From Anaerohalosphaeraceae bacterium (GTDB lineage Bacteria; Planctomycetota; Phycisphaerae; Sedimentisphaerales; Anaerohalosphaeraceae), in the NCBI GenBank assembly GCA_050309605.1, contig JBNRMN010000002.1:1-64000 (forward strand): a stretch of 64,000 bases of DNA. Reading direction: 5' to 3'. Both the position numbers and the translations under genes were made by a program. Position 1 is the stretch's first letter. Every line of letters begins with the position of its first letter. The notes beneath the pieces are model-generated. The model ran no database searches. It saw nothing but the letters and a program-made list of their open reading frames with translations, and was not told the DNA's origin. This document shows, piece after piece, positions 37,160 through 49,242 of this stretch.

Positions 37160-38722
37160 ATGACTTACTTGACTGTACCCATAGCCGGCAGCGACGCCGA
37201 GTCATTTGCCGAGCGGTTTAAGCAGGCCAAGGCCCAGGGGGCTGAGGCGATTGAGGTGCGTTTGGACGGCCTGGCGGATTTGACGCCGGAGGCGGCCGGG
37301 CGGTTAATCACCCAGGCCCGCAAGACCAAATTGCCGGTGATTGCGACCTGTCGTGAAAAGGACGAGGGCGGGGCACGCAATTTCCCGATTGCCGAAAAGA
37401 CGGCGATTCTGGCCGAATGTATCCAAGCCGGGGCCGAGTTTATAGACTGCGAGCTGAAAGTTTTTGCAAAAAAAGATGCTTTTGGGCCACTTAAAGAGGT
37501 TCTTAAGGCTCATCCCGATTGCCGATTGATTTTGTCGGCCCATCGAATGAAGGGGCGATTTGAGGATATTAATATCCTTTATGAAACAATGCTGAGTCTG
37601 TGGCCGATGGCCATCTGCAAGCTGGTCTATCCGGCTCGGCACATCAATGATTGTTTTGAGGGGCTGGATTTGCTGCATCGGGCCGGCAAGGATATGATTG
37701 TTTTTTGTATGGGCCAGGCCGGTTTGATGACCCGCGTGCTTGCCAAAAAGCTGGGGGCGTTTTTGACGTTTGCCTCGCTGGATGAGAACAGCGCGACGGC
37801 GGCAGGGCAGATTCCCGTCGAGCAGATGAAGCAGTTGTTCTGCTGGGATCGACTGGATAACGAGACCGAAGTGTTTGGCCTGATCGGCAATCCGGTGTCC
37901 CATTCGCTCAGTCCGGCGCTGTTCAATGCGGCCTTTGAGGCCGAAGCCATCAATGCGGTCTATCTGCCGTTTCGGGTTGAAGGGGACCAGGAGCAATTTT
38001 CCGCGTTTGTTGATGCGATGGTGGAACGGCCCTGGCTGAGTGTCGGTGGGTTTAGCGTGACGATTCCCCACAAAACACACGCGCTGGATTACGTCAATCG
38101 CAAAGGCGAGTTTGTTGATACGCTGGCGGCCTCTATCGGGGCGGCCAATACGCTGAAAGTGGGCTTTAACGGCATTGTGTGCGGCTACAATACCGACTAT
38201 GCCGGTGCGATGGACGCGTTGACGGCGACGATTGGGATAGAACCGCATGCCCTGCATCAAATGGATGTGGCCGTTGTGGGCGCCGGCGGTGTGGCCCGTG
38301 CGGTTGTGGCGGGTCTGGTGGATGTCGGTGCGTATGTGACGGTGTATAATCGCACCGCCAAAAAGGCCGAGTCGCTGGCCGAGGAGTTTCGCTGCAAGGC
38401 AGCCGGTTTGGATGCACTGGAACGGGCCAATCCGGCGGTGATTATCAATTGCACCAGTTTGGGGATGTATCCGGATGTCGAACAGTGTGCCGTGGAAAAA
38501 GGGGTGCTGCGGCCGGATATGACGGTTTTTGATACGGTGTATAATCCGCTTCGTACGCGGCTGCTTGAGGCTGCTGAAGAAGTCGGCGCCAAGACCATCA
38601 GCGGCGCTGAGATGTTCATCCGGCAGGCGATAGCCCAGTACCGCGTCTTTATTGGGGCGGATCCGGACGAAAAGATCATCCGATCGGTCGTGATTGAAGC
38701 CTTGAAATCCAAAACGGCGTAA
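37160..38722 (+). CDS. aroE: Fused type I 3-dehydroquinate dehydratase / shikimate dehydrogenase
   Basis: IEVRLD and AAGQI (AroD); PVSHSLSP, VTIPHK, NTDYAG, GAGGVAR, DTVYNP (AroE). Confidence 0.9.
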   Translation: MTYLTVPIAGSDAESFAERFKQAKAQGAEAIEVRLDGLADLTPEAAGRLITQARKTKLPVIATCREKDEGGARNFPIAEKTAILAECIQAGAEFIDCELKVFAKKDAFGPLKEVLKAHPDCRLILSAHRMKGRFEDINILYETMLSLWPMAICKLVYPARHINDCFEGLDLLHRAGKDMIVFCMGQAGLMTRVLAKKLGAFLTFASLDENSATAAGQIPVEQMKQLFCWDRLDNETEVFGLIGNPVSHSLSPALFNAAFEAEAINAVYLPFRVEGDQEQFSAFVDAMVERPWLSVGGFSVTIPHKTHALDYVNRKGEFVDTLAASIGAANTLKVGFNGIVCGYNTDYAGAMDALTATIGIEPHALHQMDVAVVGAGGVARAVVAGLVDVGAYVTVYNRTAKKAESLAEEFRCKAAGLDALERANPAVIINCTSLGMYPDVEQCAVEKGVLRPDMTVFDTVYNPLRTRLLEAAEEVGAKTISGAEMFIRQAIAQYRVFIGADPDEKIIRSVVIEALKSKTA

Positions 38723-39265
38723 AAAGATGTCTTGATCTGCCTCGAATGCACTACTGTAACATCTCACCCAAAATGGTTATTGGCGGAAATTGGGGGATTC
38801 GGCGGGATATTTGGGAAAATGGCGGGATGGCGGCCTCTTAAAGGGGGATTATTAAGCTATTATTCGGGATTATTAAGGCCTTTGGGGCGGCTGAGCAAAG
38901 TGCGCAAAAACGCGAATTTCGGGCATTTTCGGGGGTGTATCGGAGTATAGGGGTCGTGAATTGAAAAATCGGGCAAAATCTTTAAAAACCGCGTTTTTGA
39001 CTTCAAAACGGTAATTGTCGCGTTTAAGAAGCAGAATTTAGGGATATAAACAGGGTCTTTCGGTTGTGTCCGCGCGGACGCACTCTCGGACAACTTTTTA
39101 TATCCAAAATTACCTTAATATATCAAGATAGGTGAAATAGACAGCCATTTTTTGGGGAAAATTAACAAGAAAATATTGTCGGGAATTGATTCAGGGAAAT
39201 TCTCAAAATTTTTTTTGAAAAAAAATAAGATTTTTTTGTACCAGAATATTTCTTGCTATTTCTTG

Positions 39266-39811
39266 CTAATTTTTATTATTGCATTGTGGTTCCTGGGTAA
39301 GCCGGAGCATTTCAAGAATCGCGTTTAATCGAAATTTAATCTCTGTGAAATTGTGCAGCATCATCAACAAGTCAGAAAGTCTGTTTTTTTGGCTGTTTAT
39401 TACCTGAAGCGCGGCTTGGTCTTGTTCAGACAGCTTTTCGCCCTGACTTAGCCGTGCTTCGGCGTCCAGAATAATCGTCCAGGCCTCTTGGTATTTCTCG
39501 GCTATGGGTTTTCGGATTGTTTCAATATCAGTGTTTACAAGCGTTTCTGCGGCTTTTTGAAACTGATCGTCGCCGGTGATAAGCCAATGAAGATCAATTT
39601 CTAATGCCTCTGAAATTTTCAAAAGCACATACGGGTCGGGTAGATTTTCGCCATTTTCATAGCGAGATATTTGGCTGGAGCTTGTAAAACCCGCCATTTT
39701 AGCAAGTGCCACCATACTTAACTGTTTAGCTTTTCTGGACTTATGGAGTCTTTCGCAAAACCCATTCAGAAATTTTGAGAAATCTTCTTTTTTTCGCTTG
39801 CTTTGTTGCAT
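39266..39811 (-). CDS. XRE/cI-like HTH repressor
   Basis: LSMVALAKMAG...QISRYENGENLP...DLHWLITG; divergent from the transposase operon. Confidence 0.85.
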   Translation of the reverse strand: MQQSKRKKEDFSKFLNGFCERLHKSRKAKQLSMVALAKMAGFTSSSQISRYENGENLPDPYVLLKISEALEIDLHWLITGDDQFQKAAETLVNTDIETIRKPIAEKYQEAWTIILDAEARLSQGEKLSEQDQAALQVINSQKNRLSDLLMMLHNFTEIKFRLNAILEMLRLTQEPQCNNKN

Positions 39812-39871
39812 TTCTCTCAGTACATTAGACGATACAATGCGTAACGCTCATTGTTTTTTAAGGTTTTAGTT

Positions 39872-40069
39872 ATGGCAAAAAACGTAAATCTTCGTGATCG
39901 GGACGTAATGGCCTTAATCAATGCCAGGGCAGAGGCCGAAGGGCGGACGGCCCAAAATGCCGCCAGTCAGACGATTCGCGAGGCGCTTATGCCGATTTAC
40001 GGCCCGAAACGTCGTTCATTCAAACAGCGAATCATTGAAAAGTCAAACGGAAATGGCTCAATGGATTGA
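39872..40069 (+). CDS. Small DNA-binding protein (Arc/RHH-like; Ner/Cro position)
   Basis: 65 aa; beta-helix-helix-like pattern; first gene of the early operon. Confidence 0.5.
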   Translation: MAKNVNLRDRDVMALINARAEAEGRTAQNAASQTIREALMPIYGPKRRSFKQRIIEKSNGNGSMD

Positions 40070-41979
40070 CATTTCGACAGCCGCTGCGCGGCTGGGGGTT
40101 ACGGAGCGGGCTGTCCGTAAGCGTTGTCTGGTCGGTGATTTGCCCGGCGCTGAGAAGCGTAATGGGATCTGGCGGATACCTGTAACCGCCGACGCGCGGC
40201 TGGCAGGGCGTCCTGCCGTCGACGTGCGGGTTGATGCTGATGACCTGGCAAGAATTCCAAAACCAAAGTTAGACGAGGCGATTCGGCGGGCAGGCGTTGT
40301 CGCGGCTTTTGAGAGGTTCTCGCGTGAACACGTCCGGGCCGGCGGGCTGCGAACTGAGGCCTTCGAAATATTCGCGTATCAAAATAATCTGGCTGTCGGC
40401 ACGCTGCGGCGATGGGTTTCACGGCACAAGCAACACGGGGTTTTGGGCCTGGTGGATTGTCGCGGCGGGTCGCGAAATAGCGAGACTATCAGTCCGGAGG
40501 CCTGGGAGTTTTTCAAGAGTCTCTATCTCGATCCGCGCCAGCCGTCAATCCGGCAGTGCCTGCGGATGACCGTTCACCATAATAAGAGGGAGAAGTTGGG
40601 CTGGACAATACCATCGTACGGCGCGCTTTGCCGATACATAGACAAGTATTTGCCCTTGCCGGTTCGGGTGCTGCATCGTGAGGGGCAGGCCGCCTATGAG
40701 GCCAAGTGCGCGCCTTATATTCAAGTCGATCTTTCGGAAGTCGAGCCGGGCAGCGTCTGGGTCGGCGATCACCACCAGTTTAATGTGTTGATTCAACACA
40801 TGGGCAAATGGGTGCGGCCCTGGCTGACGGCCTGGATGGATGCGCGCAGCCGCGCGCTGGTGGGCTGGCAGGTCTGTTTGCAGCCGAACCAGACGACGAT
40901 CCTGACGTCGTTTCGGGATGCGGCGAAAAAATATGGCCCACCGGATGGGGTTAAGATCGATAATGGCCGCGACTACGATGCACGATTGTTTACCGGCACG
41001 ACCAAAAAACGCCGGAAGGCCCTGAGTAAGGGTTATCTTGACGAAGATACGGTGTCCGGCCTCTACGGTCTTTTGGGTGTCGAAGTTTCTTTTGCCATTC
41101 CTTACCATCCTCAAAGCAAGTCCATCGAACGGTTCTTTGATACCGTCGATCAACAGTTTTGCAAGTTTGTTCCGACGTATTGCGGCAAAGACACCAAGCG
41201 GAAGCCGGAAGCGCTTAATGATTATCTCAAGTCGTCGTCGGCGGTTGAGGCGGCTTATACGCTTGAGACCTTCTCGAAGGCCTTTGCCGATTACGCGGCT
41301 GTTTATAATACCCGGCCGCACTCATCGCTGGCCGGCCAGACGCCGCTGGAAGTGCTCGAATCGCGCGAGTCGAAGCGCGTCGTTTTGGATGATGTGCTGG
41401 ATCTGTTGTGCCGTGTCTGGATAGACGCAAAAGTCACCAAGAACGGTGTACGCATAAATGGACTTTATTTTGGGCAATACGACCCCCCACATCATGGCGC
41501 TGCAAGGCAAAGCTGTGCGTGTTAGCTACGATCCGAACGACGCGGGGGTCATTTTCATTTACAACGAAGATTGGAAGTTTGTTGCGCGGGCCGAGAGCAA
41601 TCGGCTGGTCGCCTACGGGCAGCCCGGGGTCAGCGACGGCTCTGTCCGTGCGGCCATGCGGCAAAAGGCCCGCGCGGCAAAACAGCTTCGTCAGCAGCGG
41701 GACGCGGCGCGTACTCGCGCGATGGACGTGGCGGCCCTGGCGATCGAGGCCCAGGCCGCCGAGACCCGGCCGGCGCCGGCGGCCAAGCCGCCGAGGATTC
41801 GGGCGGTCAAAACCGTTTTGGACGGTCAGCTCGACGCGCATAAAGTGGCTGCTGGGCCGTCGCCGTCGCGAGAGTCGTTCTGTCTGGAGTGGGACATCGA
41901 ACCCAAAGGGCTAAAACCGCCGCCTGTTATTGATCTGGGGCTGGACGACGATTTCTGGGAGGATGCCGATGTTGGGTGA
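40053..41979 (+). pseudogene. MuA-like DDE transposase, frameshifted in a C6 run at 41483-41488
   Basis: N-terminal HTH; WVGDHH, KIDNGRDY, KSIERFF (DDE); C-terminal domain (VRVSYDPND) continues in the +1 frame. Confidence 0.85.
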
Positions 41980-43090
41980 TCTCCGCGACAATCTCGAACA
42001 GGATTCACGACTGGTGCTGGTTCACGTGCCGGATGTCGGCGACGCTGCCGCGCTGGCGGCGTTCTGTGCGGAGGTCAAACGGTTTTTGGCTGAACAGGGT
42101 GTCTCGCAGACTCGGCTGGCCAAGTCTATCGAATTGTCGCAGACGGCGGTCGGTCAGTTTCTTAACGGAAAGTACGCCGGCGATAATCAGGCGCTGGCGG
42201 AGAAGATCGGCTGCTATGTCAATGCGGTTTGGCGGCGTCAGCGGCGCTCGGCAGGCGCGCCGGAGTTTGCGGAAATTGGCGTCGCGGAGCGGATTTTTGG
42301 GTTGATCCGACGGGTCGATTCGTTCAGCGATGTCGAAGGGCGGATCGGCGTGATTATCGGCGACGCCGGCAGCGGCAAGTCCGCGTGTCTGCGGGCGTAT
42401 GCCCGGGCGGACGCGGCGGCGGTCTATATCAGCCATGATTCGGCCCAGAAGATTACCGGCCTGCTGGATGCGATTACCCGCGCCAGTGGTGGAGACGTGG
42501 CCGTTAACGCCTCTTTGTCGCTGGCACGGGCGCGGCTGGCCGAGGTCATGAAGCATAAACGTCGGCTTATTTTGATCGACGAGGCCAGTTCCTTACGGGC
42601 GAAAGACCTGGATAAATTGCGGTCGCTGCTTTGTGTGAAGTGCGGCTGTCCGTTGATCCTGGCCGGCAACAATGATCTTTTGCGGACGATCCAGGAGAAT
42701 GCGGACAAGACCGGCTATGCCTCTTTGGATCAATTTAACAGCCGTTTGATCGGCGTTTTGAATTTGGATGAATTGGCCGCCGGCGGCGACGGCGGGCCGT
42801 TGTACAGTGCCGAGGACATTCGCCGACTCTACGAATACGGCGGCATTCGGCTGACGCCGGACGCGGTGGATGCCCTGGGGCGCATTTGCCGGACGCCGCA
42901 TTCGGGCAAGCTGCGAACGTGTCGAGACATCGTTCGTGCACTGCACAGCGCAACGCAGGTCATCGAGACCGGCCAGATCAACGCGGCGCTGGTCTGGGCG
43001 GCGATTGAGCAGTTGGGCCTGTCGGCGGCGGACTGGCTGCCGACTGCGTGCGGTCAGCCGGTAGTCAAAAGGGTATCAAAAATTGGGTAA
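41969..43090 (+). CDS. MuB-like AAA ATPase with N-terminal HTH
   Basis: VGQFLNGKYAGD, Walker A GDAGSGKS, Walker B ILIDEA; follows the transposase. Confidence 0.88.
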   Translation: MLGDLRDNLEQDSRLVLVHVPDVGDAAALAAFCAEVKRFLAEQGVSQTRLAKSIELSQTAVGQFLNGKYAGDNQALAEKIGCYVNAVWRRQRRSAGAPEFAEIGVAERIFGLIRRVDSFSDVEGRIGVIIGDAGSGKSACLRAYARADAAAVYISHDSAQKITGLLDAITRASGGDVAVNASLSLARARLAEVMKHKRRLILIDEASSLRAKDLDKLRSLLCVKCGCPLILAGNNDLLRTIQENADKTGYASLDQFNSRLIGVLNLDELAAGGDGGPLYSAEDIRRLYEYGGIRLTPDAVDALGRICRTPHSGKLRTCRDIVRALHSATQVIETGQINAALVWAAIEQLGLSAADWLPTACGQPVVKRVSKIG

Positions 43091-43116
43091 TTTTAGTTTT
43101 TTTGGGAAGAATAGAT

Positions 43117-44004
43117 ATGGCCGACAAAGACATTAACATTCATATTCGCGCCAAGGGCGCTGAGGACGCCAAGCGGCAGATCAGCGGCGTGGCCCAGACA
43201 ACCGGCCAGGTCGGCGACAAGGCCCAGGAGACCGGCAGCAAGAGCGAGCAGGGGTTCGGCAAGGTCAAGGGCGCCTTGACCGCGTTGATGGGGCCGCTGG
43301 GCTTTGCCGGGCTGTTTGCCTTGCTCGGTGCCGGGGCGCGGAAGGTGGCGGCGTTTTTTGACGATCTGGCGCGGCGGGCGGCGATGAAAGAGTATATGCA
43401 AAACCCTGTGATTTTGGCGTCGCATACGCATCGGCTGGCGGACGGGCGGTCGCCGGTGGTCGGCAAAGTCATTGACTATACTTTTACGGGGCGCGACCTT
43501 GTGATCACGGTCGAATTTGCTCAGACGGAGCTGGGTGAGGAGTACTGGAGACTCTACAAGGACAAATTTCAACGGGCGTTCAGTATCGGCTTTATCGGGC
43601 GGTCGGCGCCGGTCGCCGAGGTGATGGACGGGCGGCGGGTGCGTGTTTGGAAAGATATTGAATTGCTGGAGATTTCCTGTGTGGCCGTGCCGGCGAATCC
43701 GGCGGCCCTCAGCAAACAGCGGCTCTCCTGGGGCCAGCGAAAAAAAAACGAACGGGAGCAAAAGCTTTTGGAAAACCCGGTACGGCTGGAGCGATTGTTT
43801 GCTCGTTATGAAAAGCTTCGCAATGAGCAGATACGGACGGCGGGGCTGGGGTATTGCGAGGACGTCAGCGAAGAGGTGCTCAGGAAACATTTTTCAGATG
43901 CTGAAATCTCGATGATTCACGATGTTTGCCGCTATGATCCGGCGTGGGGGTTCGGCGATCCTGAAGAGCTGAGCTTTGAGGAGGATTATGCGAAGTACAT
44001 TTGA
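43117..44004 (+). CDS. HK97-family prohead protease with a tape-measure-like N-terminal extension
   Basis: NPVILASH, AFSIGF, LLEISCVAVPANPAA. Confidence 0.8.
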   Translation: MADKDINIHIRAKGAEDAKRQISGVAQTTGQVGDKAQETGSKSEQGFGKVKGALTALMGPLGFAGLFALLGAGARKVAAFFDDLARRAAMKEYMQNPVILASHTHRLADGRSPVVGKVIDYTFTGRDLVITVEFAQTELGEEYWRLYKDKFQRAFSIGFIGRSAPVAEVMDGRRVRVWKDIELLEISCVAVPANPAALSKQRLSWGQRKKNEREQKLLENPVRLERLFARYEKLRNEQIRTAGLGYCEDVSEEVLRKHFSDAEISMIHDVCRYDPAWGFGDPEELSFEEDYAKYI

Positions 44005-44201
44005 GTTTTCTGTTGGTGCGGACGGCATCACGGGGCGGCGCCCCTGGGTTTGTCGCGTGGCTGCGGTGCTGCTGCGATGCCGTTTAACGCGATGCGCCTA
44101 TTTTCTCCAGTCGGCGGCGGAGTGCCGGGCCGCCGCCGATTTTTGACCCGGCACGATTGCTCGGTAAAGCGTTTTTAATTTCGATTTAAGGATATATTAT
44201 T

Positions 44202-45551
44202 ATGGATTTTGAATTTGCTACGCGAGATAAGGTCGCCGATGGGTTTAAGGCCGTCGGCGAGCGGTTCGACGCGAACGAGGCGATGATCAATGAGTTCAAG
44301 ACGTGCATCGAACAGATTCAGGTTAAGCTCCGCCAGCTCCTGCAAACGAGGGGCTGGGGGGATAGTTTCACGTCGAATTCATTTTGGGGCAATGAGGACT
44401 ATGCCCGCGAGTTTGGTCAGATCGTACTGAGCGTCTCGCGCGGTCAGACGAAGGACTTGGGCGAGCGGACGGACGCCCTGGGCGGCGTCCTTGTGCCGGA
44501 CAATCTGTCCAGACGTCTGATTGATCTGCTGGGCAGCTTCGGCAAGTTTCGAAAAAACGCCCTGGTGTTTCCGCTGGGGCCGGGGACAACGCTTGTCCCG
44601 AAACTGGAAAGCGACTTGACGGTCGTTTGTCCGGGCGAGGGCAAAGAGATCAAGGCCTCGGACATGCTGTTCTCGGCGATCAAAATGCTGCCCAAAACGT
44701 GGGGCGTGCTGGCGGCTGTGTCCAACGAATTGGATGATGATGCCCTGGTCGCGATCGGTGAAATCGCAGGAATGTCAATCGTGCGAAGTATGGCCCGCAA
44801 AGAGGACGAGGTCGGCTTTCTCGGCGACGGCACAGAGGAATACTTCGGGCACTGCGGCATCCTCGGTGAATTCAAAAGGATCAATGAGGACTATACTCAA
44901 GTTCCCGGGCTGGTTGCCAAAAACGTGGACAATTGGGGCCAGTTGACGCTGGACGATTTCAATGATGTGATTACGCTGCTGGACAGCCAGTTTGACGACG
45001 CGGCCAAGTGGTATTGCACGAAGGCCTTCTATCGGCAGGTGATGTACACGCTGGCCGCGTCTCAGGGCGATGTCGGGCTGTTTGAGCTGCTGAGCGGCAA
45101 ACGCAGTCTGTCGTTCATGGGCTATCCTGTGGAGCTGGTGCATGCCATGCCCAAGGCTGTTTCCGAGAAGCAGGTGCCCTGCTTGTTGGGTGATTTGAAG
45201 AGCGGGGCCTATCTGGGCCAGCGCAAAGACCTGTCTATTGCCCAGAGCCGCGAGGTGCTGTTTACGCGGTACATGACGGCGATCCTGGGCATTGAGCGGA
45301 TCGATGTTCAGATCTTTGGCTGCGGGGACAAAAACAACCCCGGCCCGATTGCCGCCGACAAGGACGGCAAGTTTTATTTCATCGGCATTGACCTGATCAA
45401 GGCGCACAAGCGGTATTATCGGATCAAACAGCCGCATGTGGGCGATGGGACAATGACGGACAGTCTGCTGACGGTTATCGCCCTGGGCGTGCCGAATCGG
45501 ACGCCTTTGAACGCCGCCGACGCCGGTTGCGAGGAACGGGTGTTGGCATGA
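44202..45551 (+). CDS. HK97-fold phage major capsid protein with C-terminal extension
   Basis: Coiled-coil delta domain, GGVLVP, VSNELDDDA, FLGDGT, MGYPV, LLGDL, ERID. Confidence 0.88.
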   Translation: MDFEFATRDKVADGFKAVGERFDANEAMINEFKTCIEQIQVKLRQLLQTRGWGDSFTSNSFWGNEDYAREFGQIVLSVSRGQTKDLGERTDALGGVLVPDNLSRRLIDLLGSFGKFRKNALVFPLGPGTTLVPKLESDLTVVCPGEGKEIKASDMLFSAIKMLPKTWGVLAAVSNELDDDALVAIGEIAGMSIVRSMARKEDEVGFLGDGTEEYFGHCGILGEFKRINEDYTQVPGLVAKNVDNWGQLTLDDFNDVITLLDSQFDDAAKWYCTKAFYRQVMYTLAASQGDVGLFELLSGKRSLSFMGYPVELVHAMPKAVSEKQVPCLLGDLKSGAYLGQRKDLSIAQSREVLFTRYMTAILGIERIDVQIFGCGDKNNPGPIAADKDGKFYFIGIDLIKAHKRYYRIKQPHVGDGTMTDSLLTVIALGVPNRTPLNAADAGCEERVLA

Positions 45552-45727
45552 GGCAGGCGATTGAGGATTTTTGCAAGGACACAGGACGCACGCCCAACGG
45601 CAACATTGATATCCAAAAAGAGCTGGCTATTAAAGAAATCACGCTAATTTTGAGGAATTCCGACCCTTGCTTTGTTTTAGCGCTGCTCCACCGGCTTCAG
45701 CGGCGTCAAGAACTCTGGACGGGCTGA
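45548..45727 (+). CDS. Small hypothetical protein
   Basis: ATGA overlap with the capsid stop; 59 aa. Confidence 0.4.
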   Translation: MRQAIEDFCKDTGRTPNGNIDIQKELAIKEITLILRNSDPCFVLALLHRLQRRQELWTG

Positions 45728-46008
45728 GCGGGATGTGTTTGTTTCCCGCAGCGCTCTGGCACGGTTCTTCCGCGCCCTGTTTTTGCTTAAAATATACCCA
45801 ATTAAGCGTCGTTTTGTGTCCATTTAAGGGGCGTTTAATCGGGGTTTGAAGGCCGACGCCTGCTTGTCGGATGTTAAAATAGGCAATTTGGCGCCGGAGA
45901 TTTTATGCGCTATCGGCGGCGCATATTGAGTGAAACAAAAACTCATTTTGCGCGCGATTCTACATACATCTACATTCAGAAAAAATGTGCTTTTCTCTGT
46001 TTTTTTGC

Positions 46009-46063: not shown

Positions 46064-46516
46064 ATGGAAACCAATGAACACAAAACGACCTGGAATCAGA
46101 AGCTCAATGCGTTCTATGACCGCTGCCGTCAGGCGGGGCTGAAGATGACGCCGCAGCGTCTGGCCGTTTACAAGGCCTTGATCCAGACGAATTTGCATCC
46201 GACCGCCGACGATGTGTATCAAACGGTGCGTCGGGAGCTTCCCACGATCTCGCTGGATACGGTCAACCGGACGCTGCTGACACTGGCTGAAATCGGTGCG
46301 GCCTTCATCGTCGAGGGGACCGGACAGCCGCGCCGTTATGACGGCGGGATGGAAGAACACCAGCATTTTCGCTGTCTGAAATGCGGAAAAATCATTGATT
46401 TTCATTATGAGCCGTATGACCAAATTGAAACGCCGTCACACCTTGGCGATTTCAAGGTCATCCGAAAAACGGTCTATCTTGAGGGCTATTGCGCAGCGTG
46501 TGATCAGGACAACTGA
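46064..46516 (+). CDS. perR: Fur-family regulator (PerR-like)
   Basis: MTPQRLAV, HPTADDVY, HQHFRCLKCG, CAAC; heads the peroxide-defence genes. Confidence 0.85.
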   Translation: METNEHKTTWNQKLNAFYDRCRQAGLKMTPQRLAVYKALIQTNLHPTADDVYQTVRRELPTISLDTVNRTLLTLAEIGAAFIVEGTGQPRRYDGGMEEHQHFRCLKCGKIIDFHYEPYDQIETPSHLGDFKVIRKTVYLEGYCAACDQDN

Positions 46517-46563
46517 TCGTTCAAAGTATATAACGTTCACATTGATAAGAAAGAGAGGTTTGT

Positions 46564-47136
46564 ATGTCAGTTAAAGGAACACAGACGGAGAAGAATTTGT
46601 TGACCGCATTTTCGGGAGAATCCCAGGCGCGCAATCGTTATACCTATTTTGCCGGCCAGGCCAAAAAGGAAGGGTATGAGCAGATTGCGGCCATTTTCTC
46701 TGAAACAGCCGACCAGGAAAAGGAGCACGCCAAACGGCTGTTCAAGTTTCTTGAAGGCGGCGAGGTTGAAATCGTCGGCAGTTTCCCGGCCGGCGTGATC
46801 GGCACCACCGAGCAGAACCTGCAGGAGGCGGCTCACGGCGAAAACTATGAAACAACCGAGATGTATCCCGGTTTTGCCAAAGTGGCCGAGGAAGAAGGTT
46901 TTACGGAAATCGCCGCGGTCTTTCGCAAGATCGCCGTGGCCGAGGCTCGCCACCGCGACCGTTATCTTGCGCTGCGCAAGAATATTCAGACCGGCCAGGT
47001 CTTTAAGCGTGAAAAACCGCAGCGCTGGATTTGCCGCAACTGCGGTTATGTGCACGAAGGAACAGAAGCGCCGAAGTCATGCCCGGCCTGTGCCCATCCT
47101 CAGGCTCATTTTGAGCTGGAAGCGGCCAATTATTGA
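46564..47136 (+). CDS. rbr: Rubrerythrin
   Basis: [29 protein letters not shown]. Confidence 0.95.
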
Positions 47137-47227
47137 TTGGCGGCCGGCTTTTTGAGCGGCTTACACCGCGTATTGTGCCGGCGGCATGGTAAAAGGCCTT
47201 AAAGTGTAGAAAGGATGTTGCTTATTA

Positions 47228-47273
47228 ATGTCCGGGCGCTCGGCTTCGGAGGGGAGATACGACGCCCGGACAT
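47228..47273. other. Intergenic stem-loop
   Basis: ATGTCCGGGCG / CGCCCGGACAT 11-bp perfect stem between rbr and tpx. Confidence 0.5.
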
Positions 47274-47425
47274 CTTAATTTTGATGGGAATTCCTGATTT
47301 GTATGGGAAACAACAGGTATCGAAAATTAACGGAAATTGTTAAAATCACACTGGCTTTTGCGCCTTTTTTGATTATCTTTATAATCATCAGTTTAGCGAT
47401 AGCCGGTTGCGAAAGGAGTCAGACT

Positions 47426-47941
47426 ATGCAGGAACGAAAAGGTATCATTACGATGAAGGGAAATCCTCTGACCCTCACAGGTCAAGAGGTCAAAGTCGGT
47501 CAAAAGGCCCCGGACTTTACCGTGGTCGGAAATGATCTTTCACCCGTTACTCTGTCGTCTTTTTCGGGTAAGGTGATTGTGGTTTCGTCGGTGCCGTCGC
47601 TGGATACGGGGGTCTGTGATGTAATGACGCGGCGTTTTAACGACGAGGCCGGCAAGCTGGGCGACGAGGTCGTTGTGCTGACCATAAGTATGGATTTGCC
47701 GTTCGCTCAGAATCGCTGGTGCGGCGCGACGGGGGTGACCCATGTGACGACGCTGTCGGATTACCAGACGGCGGATTTTGGGCAAAAATACGGCCTGCTG
47801 ATCAAAGAGCTGCGTCTGCTGGCGCGGGCGGTTTTGGTGATTGACAAAGCCGGTGTGGTGCGGTATGTTCAGGTGGTGCCGGAAATTGCGACGGAGCCGG
47901 ATTATGACGCCGTGCTCAAGGCCGTCAACGACGTGTTGTAA
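47426..47941 (+). CDS. tpx: Thiol peroxidase
   Basis: VPSLDTGVC, SMDLPFAQNRWC, LLARAV; RBS AAGGAG. Confidence 0.93.
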   Translation: MQERKGIITMKGNPLTLTGQEVKVGQKAPDFTVVGNDLSPVTLSSFSGKVIVVSSVPSLDTGVCDVMTRRFNDEAGKLGDEVVVLTISMDLPFAQNRWCGATGVTHVTTLSDYQTADFGQKYGLLIKELRLLARAVLVIDKAGVVRYVQVVPEIATEPDYDAVLKAVNDVL

Positions 47942-48060
47942 GGCAGAAGACAGAATTCAGAATTCAGAAAACAGAGGACAGAAGGCAGTAGGCAGAAGTC
48001 GGAATCTTGCCCTCTGGGTTTCTCTGTGGTGATTTGGTTTAGAGTTACAAAGGTGCATCG

Positions 48061-49242
48061 ATGAGAGCATTGACAGAACGCATCTGTGAAGTGGGCGTAC
48101 AGGACTGGGATCGCCGGCTCTTTGATGAGCTGATTCCGCTTCCGGACGGGACCAGTTACAACGCTTACCTGATCAAAGGCAGTGAAAAGACGGCGCTGCT
48201 GGATACGGTTGATCCGTCCAAGACCGAATTGCTGGTGGACCATCTGGTGCGGGCGGGAGCGGACTCGATTGATTATATCATCAGCCATCACGCCGAGCAG
48301 GATCACTCCGGCAGTATCCCGGATATGCTGCTGATGTATCCGGATGCCAAGGTCGTGACCAATCCCAAATGCAAGGCGATGCTGATTGACCATTTGCAGC
48401 TTGAGGATGATCGGTTTATCGAGGTTCAGGATGGCCAGGAGCTGTCGCTGGGCGATAAGACACTTCAGTTTATCTATACGCCGTGGGTGCATTGGCCTGA
48501 GACCATGTGCACGTGGGTCAAAGAAGACCGCATCTTGTTCAGTTGTGATTTTTTTGGTTCGCATCAGGCGTGCAGCAATCTCTATGTTGACAATGAAGCC
48601 CTTGTGCTGGAAGCGGCCAAGCGGTATTACGGTGAGATCATGATGCCGTTTCGCACGTCGATTCGCGGCAATCTGAAAAAGCTTGACGGACTGGATATTG
48701 CAATGATCGCTCCCAGTCATGGCCCGGTGTATAATCGTCCGTCATTGATTCTGGATGCCTATCGGGACTGGATTGCCGAAGACAAGGTCAAAAACCATGT
48801 CATTGTGGCGTATGTCTCAATGCACGACAGCACACAGCGGATGGCCGAGTATTTCGTCGATGCCCTGATGGAACGCGGCGTCGGAGTCAAGCAGTATAAT
48901 CTGACCGTTGCGGATATCGGCGAACTGGTCATTGATCTGGTGGATGCGGCGACGGTGGTGATTGGTTCGCCGACGGTGCTGGTCGGGGCGCATCCGTCGG
49001 CGCTGTATTGTGCGGCACTGGTCAATGTCCTGCGCCCCAAGACCAAACATCTGGGGATTATCGGGTCGTTTGGCTGGGGCAGCAAGATGGTCGATCAGAT
49101 TACCGGTATGCTGACGAATGTCAAGGCCGAGATTTTTGAGCCGGTGCTTTCCAAAGGGATGGCCGGTGAACAGGCCTATTCAGAACTGGATGTGCTGGCG
49201 GATAAAATCGCACAAAAACACAACGCCCTCGGGCTGATGTGA
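48061..49242 (+). CDS. fprA: Flavodiiron protein (FprA)
   Basis: [35 protein letters not shown]. Confidence 0.93.

Follow-up and report, generated by a model that had tools for sequence, protein, structure and literature searches.

A decayed Mu-type transposable element with phage head genes in Anaerohalosphaeraceae, and a family of compact relatives that are probable satellites of Mu-like phages

Capsid-forming phage-inducible chromosomal islands (cfPICIs) are phage satellites that encode their own portal, connectors, and small terminase, and that integrate at att sites with a tyrosine integrase. To our knowledge, all of the well-described satellites, namely the P4-like elements, the phage-inducible chromosomal islands (PICIs) and cfPICIs, PLE, and PICMI, integrate by means of site-specific recombinases. 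Here, we analyzed a stretch of 64,000 nucleotides (hereafter, the window) from an Anaerohalosphaeraceae bacterium of the Planctomycetota (contig JBNRMN010000002.1, positions 1 to 64,000, forward strand), in which an element of 7,210 bp at positions 38755-45964 combines a Mu-type transposition module with genes for a prohead protease and an HK97-fold capsid. The host genome (G000) has a size of 3.4 Mb in 97 contigs and is 99.7% complete. We consider that the element is probably a decayed copy of a transposable satellite of Mu-like phages, one of an undescribed family whose members encode capsids and would depend on a helper phage. The members of this family are Mu-ended elements of 7-9 kb found in Phycisphaerae and in sediment and digester metagenomes; they have kept a head module and have no large terminase, portal, connector, tail-tube, or lysis gene. 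The compact combination of Mu-type transposition and head genes is a conserved, repeatedly transposed, and selected architecture of the family, and not a product of decay.

Like Mu, D3112/B3, and BcepMu, the window element has TG...CA ends and encodes a MuA-type DDE transposase along with a MuB-type ATPase, as well as a small regulator beside a divergent repressor; in addition, the family makes 5-bp target duplications, and full Mu-like prophages of the same bacterial family have head proteins homologous to its own. However, these phages measure ~33-40 kb, and the elements lack their large terminase, portal/gpF, connectors, tail tube, baseplate, and lysis genes. Furthermore, MuA/MuB and the head genes of the element are collinear; the related full Mu-like phages have their head genes on the opposite strand. 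The resemblance to cfPICIs lies in a small, repressor-controlled island with its own HK97 capsid and prohead protease, no large terminase or tails, and, in some relatives, a TerS-like gene. Unlike cfPICIs, the elements have neither a tyrosine integrase with an att site nor a portal or head-tail connectors; they carry a tape-measure-like gene, and they use Mu-type transposition with 5-bp duplications at varied sites. The relatives without MuA/MuB retain Mu-type ends and 5-bp duplications and must be moved in trans, as are engineered mini-Mu/mini-D3112 and transposons resembling MITEs (miniature inverted-repeat transposable elements), but they are natural elements with a conserved, selected head module, and are neither deletion constructs nor devoid of genes. 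With the P4-like, SaPI/PICI, PLE, and PICMI satellites, the family shares a presumed parasitism of the virion machinery of a helper, in which the capsid is remodelled or replaced, and it differs from them in Mu-type transposition as opposed to site-specific recombinases. A full-text literature search, conducted mostly at the level of abstracts and without supplements, returned no account of a transposase-borne, capsid-encoding satellite. In passages of one article, mini-Mu is named as an engineered tool (PMC8705779), and passages of a 2024 review name transposases for pairs of insertion sequences (ISs) and MITEs only, not for satellites (PMC11389934).

Genes were called from a listing of open reading frames (ORFs) together with Pfam and PHROG family scans, and the termini were also located with a motif scan. 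The original prediction, made from the sequence of the window, had listed a repressor, a small regulator, MuA, MuB, an HK97 protease, a major capsid protein, and one small ORF, and all of these were recovered in the positions it had given. The parts of the element are as follows.

38755..39265, + strand: left end region, with the terminus TGTAACATCTCACCCAAAATGG followed by repeated GGCGGGA-type motifs
39266..39811, - strand: divergent repressor with a Cro/C1-type helix-turn-helix (HTH), 181 aa (HTH_3, E=1.4e-12; phrog_8, E=1.3e-16)
39851/39872..40069, + strand: small regulator in the position of Mu Ner, ~65 aa, no Pfam or PHROG match
40053..41979, + strand: MuA-type DDE transposase, in frame 0 to 41525 and then in the +1 frame at 41458-41979
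~41969..43090, + strand: MuB-type AAA+ ATPase with an N-terminal HTH (phrog_296, E=7.7e-37; AAA_22, E=7.6e-17)
43117..43377, + strand: tape-measure-like N-terminal fragment, ~87 aa, fused in frame to the protease (by homology to proteins of relatives)
43368..44004 (ORF 43048/43117-44004), + strand: prohead serine protease S78, N-terminally truncated (PF04586, E=5e-6; phrog_80, E=1.8e-14)
44202..45353 (ORF to 45551), + strand: HK97-fold major capsid protein, residues 1-384 (PF05065, E=4e-26; phrog_10)
45354..45551, + strand: C-terminal 65 aa of a phrog_5707-like jellyroll protein, fused in frame to the capsid protein (matches relatives)
45527..45727, + strand: small ORF, 66 aa, without a significant family match
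45801..45964, + strand: right end region, with the terminus ...CATTTTGCGCGCGATTCTACA, an inverted match to the left terminus

The transposase was recognized by phrog_310 (E=9.6e-91), PF02914 (E=1.2e-13), PF09039 (E=1.6e-12), and PF09299 (E=2.3e-5), which correspond to DDE_2, HTH_Tnp_Mu_2, and Mu-transpos_C, and it shares 63% identity with an intact MuA of 654 aa that is encoded by an element in a genome of the same genus (G003). The MuB protein is 66-70% identical to those of G003 and a further relative (G001), and its match to TniB reached only E=1e-4, under the cut-off for that family. The small regulator is 42% identical to a 66-aa ORF that precedes MuA in G003, and homologues of the repressor occupy the same position in G003, G161, G273, G307, and G398. 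The left end is 78% identical to that of G003; both start with TGTAAC, and the flanks upstream of them diverge. The GGCGGGA-type repeats, judged from their sequence and position, are probably binding sites of the transposase. The right end aligns with its counterparts in the G003 element and in a relative (L065) whose DNA is 80-85% identical to that of the window element. The region 45560-45800 has no counterpart in L065, and the ORF at 45527-45727 is probably not a conserved gene. The family scans detected no terminase, portal, lysis, or tail-tube gene in the window element, as had been predicted, and no integrase in the window or in the scanned relatives. The original description needs correction in that the protease has lost its first ~55-60 residues and the last small ORF, absent from L065, is probably not conserved.

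We examined the site of insertion. The element sits between a bifunctional aroD/aroE gene (aroDE, ending at 38722) and a Fur/PerR gene (46064-46516). The left terminus, TGTAACATC..., starts at 38755, and the right terminus, ...GATTCTACA, stops at 45964. These are inverted ends of the Mu TG...CA type, in which the sequence at 38755 is matched by the reverse complement of the right end, TGTAGAATCGCGCGCAAAATGAG, at 45964, and TGTAAC...CTACA termini are common to the window element and the G003 element. The window element is a true insertion, and the empty aroE-perR site that was expected in relatives does exist: aroDE and perR are adjacent without the element in two sister species (G006:C147, with flanks 93% identical, and G002:C7), and the alignment to the empty G006 site breaks off at 38749 and 45974 of the window. 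The 5-mers that flank the element are unequal (ACTAC / TACAT) and ~80 bp of the G006 intergenic DNA is absent; this site therefore has no intact target duplication. The termini lie where the original prediction had placed them, at 38755 and 45964. The G+C content dips to ~0.40 across the left end and the repressor, against 0.55-0.60 in the surroundings. Both junctions vary among samples: small indels occur at the right junction (45958-45975), with an (ACA)n-like run, ATCTACAACAACAACAACAGCAA, in one study, and five bases at the left junction (38750-38754) are missing in one study. A DNA search of G000 revealed no copy of the element beyond that in the window, and tblastn searches of this genome with MuA, MuB, TerS, TerL, portal, adaptor, capsid, and other proteins yielded nothing outside the element.

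The same stretch was present in assembled contigs from ~10 studies (23 runs, no RNA run among them), and we compared the contigs of four independent studies. These contigs are assemblies of bulk DNA, not raw reads, so that rare variants can be hidden in them. In contigs of three studies the left end, and in contigs of two studies the right end, was joined to other flanking DNA, with TCGGC next to the terminus on both sides of this second site. The 30-mer of its left flank is unique in G000 (contig C67), where the two flanks are contiguous and TCGGC occurs once. The site in C67 is thus empty, which indicates that the element or a sibling transposed within the population of this species and produced a perfect 5-bp duplication. 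The contigs of the same two studies also bridge the aroDE junction. An IS was observed inside MuA at 40798-40806 in two other studies, with a 9-bp duplication and inverted repeats beginning CAGTACTGTCCGGTT, and is absent from the window copy. Among the 40 best-supported of the 166 differences between the contigs and the window, those in MuB comprised 27 synonymous codons and 9 mostly conservative non-synonymous codons.

Three lesions distinguish the window copy from its relatives. Alignments to relatives and the contigs of the other studies indicate that the frameshift and the two gene fusions, which the original prediction had regarded as leaving decay fully plausible, are all real. The MuA lesion consists of one extra C in a C6 run (41483-41488) in comparison with G003 and with G017, a genome carrying a full Mu-like prophage, and it breaks the reading frame inside the C-terminal barrel domain. 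This run was covered by four records from the four independent studies without any indel, although one record had 13 other differences. Because the same reading recurs in all of these contigs, the frameshift is real and shared. A sequencing error is ruled out on the same grounds, with the proviso that assemblies may hide a rare intact variant. We also considered programmed +1 frameshifting on CCC-CCA (a Pro-Pro stall); no result supported it, and the relatives have no such run. Given that a copy reached the second site despite the frameshifted MuA, the element may have been mobilized in trans, or an undetected intact allele or low-level recovery of the frame may account for it.

The protease lesion is a deletion. 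The first ~87 residues of the protease ORF are not protease sequence and share 31-44% identity with the N-terminal parts of proteins of 507-564 aa in G307, G273, and G398. The tape-measure link derives from the G398 and G273 proteins, which match PF10145 weakly, below threshold. The 239-aa ORF of G003 was also considered as the source of this N-terminus, but showed no similarity to it, and the tape-measure-like proteins match instead. In the alignment to the G003 and G001 proteases, the N-terminal strands are absent and the first ~55-60 canonical residues are missing. The junction is a 10-nt overlap, GGCGCGGCGG, at 43368-43377. A contig of 4,822 nt from another study (X3) has 1,387 extra nucleotides exactly between 43377 and 43368, and loose contig ends from two further studies (X4 and X9) continue into the canonical protease N-terminus ('DRDGEVVSL') and into the tape-measure-like gene. 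Together, these sequences point to a sibling, ~2% diverged, with the order MuB, full tape-measure-like gene, full protease, and capsid, and they identify the window fusion as a 1.39-kb deletion at the 10-nt overlap. Additionally, an AGC codon after 43762 is present in all four runs and absent from the window.

The third lesion concerns the capsid. Residues 385-449 of the capsid ORF are the C-terminus of the phrog_5707-like protein, and the last ~6 capsid residues are deleted. L065 keeps an intact capsid stop and a complete 149-aa 5707-like gene, from which it follows that the window has lost 335 bp between two copies of the microhomology CCCGGCCCGATTG. The capsid::5707 junction was bridged without gaps in three studies, and this deletion is therefore the older one. 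Taken as a whole, the window copy itself is probably no longer autonomous.

To collect relatives, we searched 401 Phycisphaerae genomes with a capsid profile and classified the loci by tblastn of their flanks of ~1.5 kb; the single window capsid protein, used as a query of genome contigs, had retrieved only the G003 contig. The profile detected 30 capsid loci in 28 of the 401 genomes: 9 were compact, i.e., had no portal beside the protease (G000, G003, G001, G161, G398, G273, G325, G307, and G262), 13 were portal-adjacent, and 8 were distant or unclassified. The G003 element, which spans L014:5438 to L055:9590 and is directly followed by DtxR/FeoA/FeoB genes of the host, has the following gene set: a repressor, a small ORF, an intact MuA (654 aa), MuB (371 aa), the 239-aa ORF, protease, capsid, a 5707-like gene, and an 85-aa ORF. 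ACAGC, a perfect duplication, flanks both of its termini, TGTAACGTC... and ...GACTCTACA. G001:C106 has the same gene order up to the contig ends. The end of G003:C65 (L055:10500-10622), which lies immediately upstream of the 5707-like gene, looks like the C-terminal part of an IS transposase, and the element is probably split over two contigs because of this IS-like end. Just upstream of the G003 element (L014:5380-5437, on G003:C50) there is a solo right end of ~60 bp that ends ...CATTCTACA and is followed by GC and then TGTAAC. When L014:3800-5437 was compared with all elements, nothing similar was found except this right-end-like stretch of ~60 bp. Likewise, a right end and a left end lie 8 bp apart in G009:C3 (L060:14600-14670). 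The abutting ends in G003 and G009 suggest either that elements inserted beside the ends of others already in place or that tandem copies left relics there.

Six of the compact genomes (G307, G398, G273, G161, G325, and G262) have no MuA/MuB in longer stretches, yet have Mu-type termini; in G273, the element measures 8,740 bp and is flanked by a CTCAC duplication. Elements with Mu-type ends and perfect 5-bp duplications that have no transposase of their own must be moved in trans. The phrog_5707-like gene (146-175 aa) follows the capsid gene in all relatives. A Zn-ribbon gene and a Mu Gam-like gene also occur in relatives, and a gene similar to TerS/Mu gp27 (phrog_426) is found in only some of them (G307 and L082), and not in the window. 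These accessory TerS-like, Gam-like, and jellyroll genes fit a virion-borne life. An HTH_17 protein of ~160 aa in G273 (L051:3101-3571) and L139 (2999-3505) resembles only the N-terminal DNA-binding domain of MuA, and short matches to MuA were also observed in L071, L072, L092, L120, and L124, which are elements without a transposase. On the basis of this resemblance, the protein is a candidate regulator that binds ends or operators, and it could interact with the transposition machinery of a helper. For comparison, the full Mu-like prophages of G009 and G017, from the same bacterial family, carry TerS, TerL, portal-gpF, protease, capsid, 5707-like, and adaptor genes on one strand, with MuA, MuB, and Gam on the strand opposite the head genes. 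Since the two modules are on opposite strands in the phages, the compact layout is not one simple deletion away from them.

A capsid alignment of eight sequences was then used to scan metagenomes, and the best 80 of 208 relatives were analyzed. Some of the loci are contig sequences of metagenome-assembled genomes (L066 = G003, L067 = G161, and L071/L072 = the G273 type), so not all of the counts are independent. A tblastn match to a portal, TerL, or adaptor was obtained in none of the best 80 loci. MuA and MuB were present in 14 of these 80, before the protease in 7 and after the capsid module in 7, and a further two had MuA at a contig edge. The remaining loci contained the repressor, protease, capsid, 5707-like, tape-measure-like, and Zn-ribbon/Gam-like genes together with two small conserved ORFs. 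In L077:5-1434 and L126:3-1848, the protease comes next after MuA and no MuB could be detected in between, which may be an architectural variant or reflect a divergent MuB. In L116:1-80, an apparent library adapter runs directly into the left part of a compact MuA/MuB element, whose left end is unreadable because of this adapter-like sequence at the contig start.

To find bounded elements, we required TG...CA pairs separated by 6-14 kb in which at least 17 of 30 positions matched in inverted orientation and the outer 5-mers were the same. Perfect duplications were found for L071/L072 (8,740 bp, CTCAC), L082 (8,632 bp, GTTGG), L139 (8,087 bp, TTCGT), and L144 (7,430 bp, ACGAG). A PHROG scan of 50 ORFs from L082, L139, L144, L107, and L093 revealed repressors, a TerS-like protein (phrog_426), protease, capsid, MuA, MuB, and Zn-ribbon/Gam-like proteins, and these five elements gave no match to a large terminase, portal, or tail protein. 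An alignment of three capsid sequences retrieved no relative from IMG/VR, while the alignment of eight did. Its six best loci there (40-42% identity) were compact, 73 of the 80 IMG/VR loci had the order TerS-TerL-portal-protease-capsid-5707-adaptor, and one was ambiguous. These 73 loci serve as a positive control, because the same queries detect the terminase and portal genes when they are present. The compact gene set, whose recurrence at other loci and in other genomes had been proposed as a check, was thus found at 9 genomic loci, in 80/80 of the best metagenome loci, and in the 6 best IMG/VR loci. With 208 metagenome relatives, of which the best 80 are all compact, the family is abundant enough for comparative study now.

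A maximum-likelihood tree of capsids was constructed with 29 rows, leaving out the partial G262 capsid; groups were set by the neighboring genes and not by the capsid. Eight compact capsids grouped in a single clade (support 100/100) that is nested among the 13 portal-adjacent capsids, those of full Mu-like prophages, although the relatives in this tree are not independent. Within the compact clade, the MuA/MuB-bearing G000, G003, and G001 were not monophyletic, which indicates that the transposition module was gained, lost, or exchanged. The occurrence of the family in two bacterial families, with fresh duplications, implies horizontal transfer. Between the window capsid and that of L065 (275 codons), dN was 0.09 and dS was 1.1, giving a dN/dS of 0.08-0.09, and for the retained 5707 C-terminus (65 codons) dN/dS was 0.03-0.04. 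The original prediction had named three outcomes that would speak against it, namely a single instance of the element, full-length phages as its closest relatives, and neutrally evolving head genes. We found many instances, the closest relatives are compact, and the capsid, with a dN/dS of ~0.08, is under purifying selection.

The protein encoded after the capsid gene was also modelled. An AlphaFold2 model of the 5707-like family (39 sequences) is a beta-jellyroll with a pLDDT of 90.4. The best structural matches were a chain of the neck/portal-vertex entry of phage Milano (8fwg_l1; Z 9.5, 110 aligned residues) and YomS/XepA (Z 9.3-9.5), and the jellyroll cement protein of BPP-1 (3j4u_H) ranked fifth in Foldseek (Z 7.8, 111 aligned residues, 18% identity). 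A search of PDB sequences with the 5707-like profile gave a single match, to tachylectin (E=0.024), which is at chance level. From the jellyroll matches of the model and the fixed place of the gene after the capsid gene in both phages and compact elements, the protein is likely to be a capsid cement or decoration protein.

The absence of terminase, portal, and tail genes leads us to infer that the elements need a Mu-like helper for these three functions, and that those without MuA would rely on it for transposition as well. An intact ancestor of the window element would have been ~9 kb in length and would have carried, in order, the left end, repressor, small regulator, MuA, MuB, tape-measure-like gene, prohead protease, HK97 capsid, jellyroll protein, and right end. 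The repressor would hold such an element silent until infection by a helper, or its induction, leads to transposition by the element's own MuA/MuB or by those of the helper. The capsid, protease, and cement proteins of the element would then assemble capsids on the portal of the helper, which would package the element and supply tails. In a new cell, Mu-type transposition would integrate the element with a 5-bp duplication. Capsid formation, packaging, and induction are predicted here from gene content, as is the dependence on a helper, and the anatomy, ends, target duplications, insertion polymorphism, family conservation, and purifying selection are observed. A broader proposal, to which we give roughly even chances, is that Phycisphaerae, and probably other sediment and digester bacteria, harbor widespread undescribed Mu-transposing satellites that comprise autonomous MuA/MuB forms and 'mini-Mu' riders dependent on the transposase of the helper, and that both forms build their own capsids from capsid, protease, and jellyroll cement proteins, often along with a tape-measure-like and a Gam-like protein, on the portal of a Mu-like helper, with the window as a decayed member whose siblings still jump. 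If this is true, Mu-type replication and integration would be a new mode of mobility for phage parasitism, and some members would be fully non-autonomous, borrowing both transposase and virion, and would thus be natural mini-Mu elements. It would also explain the orphan capsid/protease pairs that prophage finders call 'incomplete' in Planctomycetota genomes, and would offer a compact bounded cassette for studying the matching of a capsid protein to a portal of foreign origin.

Several observations weigh against a satellite of this kind. No helper is present in the 99.7% complete G000, where MuA, MuB, TerL, portal, and capsid genes of this type are absent outside the element, and of the nine genomes with a compact element only G161 also holds a related full Mu-like prophage capsid. 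The IMG/VR entries are computational predictions, and the runs are bulk-DNA assemblies and not particle or virome sequences. Three lesions and the lack of a target duplication mark the window copy, and since its MuA frameshift appears in every contig of the four studies, the element either moved with a broken transposase, in trans, or has an intact variant that is hidden. The MuA/MuB-type elements examined have no recognizable TerS, the tape-measure assignment rests on sub-threshold PF10145 matches, and jellyroll matches in the range of Z 7.8-9.5 can reflect a shared fold alone. Finally, at the 67 positions with a conservation of at least 95% among 69 other family capsids, the window capsid shows 6 deviations, against a family median of 1, and this count ties for the highest of the 70 sequences. 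These deviations are compatible with recently relaxed constraint in the window lineage.

The capsid deviations, together with the frameshifted MuA, the two internal deletions, the lack of a target duplication, and the lack of a helper in the genome, are what would be expected of a plain remnant, i.e., a Mu-like prophage from which deletions removed the packaging, tail, and lysis genes and whose functionless head genes are still decaying. The original prediction had left the choice between a streamlined satellite and an internally deleted prophage open. We consider a remnant unlikely, because the compact set recurs at the 9 genomic loci, the best 80 metagenome loci, and the 6 best IMG/VR loci and forms one capsid clade, members at different sites have defined ends and perfect duplications, the capsid is under purifying selection, and the gene orientation differs from that of full phages of the same host family. 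The compact layout is conserved, repeatedly transposed, and selected, and is not a one-off deletion of a 37-kb prophage. The suspicion of decay was correct for the window copy, which is a decayed derivative with its frameshift, two deletions, and missing duplication, but not for the layout of the family. Strong purifying selection would equally be expected if the module were a selfish or host-retained anti-phage island, in which the element persists as a transposon without being packaged, and its capsid, protease, and cement proteins poison Mu-like phage assembly during infection or divert it. The repressor control, the absence of an own terminase or portal, and the close homology of the head proteins to those of Mu-like phages that infect the same host family agree with this explanation, too. 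We regard it as improbable nevertheless, since the TerS-like, Gam-like, and tape-measure-like genes of relatives are better suited to DNA that travels in virions, and the fresh duplications in two bacterial families imply horizontal transfer. Moreover, known satellites that interfere with assembly are also packaged, so this explanation overlaps with that of a capsid-encoding satellite.

Encapsulins, too, are characterized by an HK97-fold capsid that comes with neither portal nor terminase, and the transposon cargo could on that ground be a portal-less, encapsulin-like nanocompartment, or a minimal self-sufficient gene-transfer particle. We consider this very improbable: the module includes an S78 prohead protease, the capsid N-terminus has the length of a delta domain and aligns with phage capsids, and the capsids nest inside a phage capsid clade. 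The cement-like, tape-measure-like, TerS-like, and Gam-like genes likewise point to virion biology, and no gene for a cargo enzyme was found in the five fully scanned elements. We favor a decayed satellite of Mu-like phages as the more likely explanation of the window element, and for annotation of the locus, the appropriate label is a defective Mu-like transposable element, not a prophage. Downstream of the element, PerR was assigned by Pfam, and rubrerythrin-like, thiol peroxidase-like, and flavodiiron-like proteins follow it, as read from ORF sequences alone; the region 46064-49242 is an oxidative-stress cluster typical of anaerobes.

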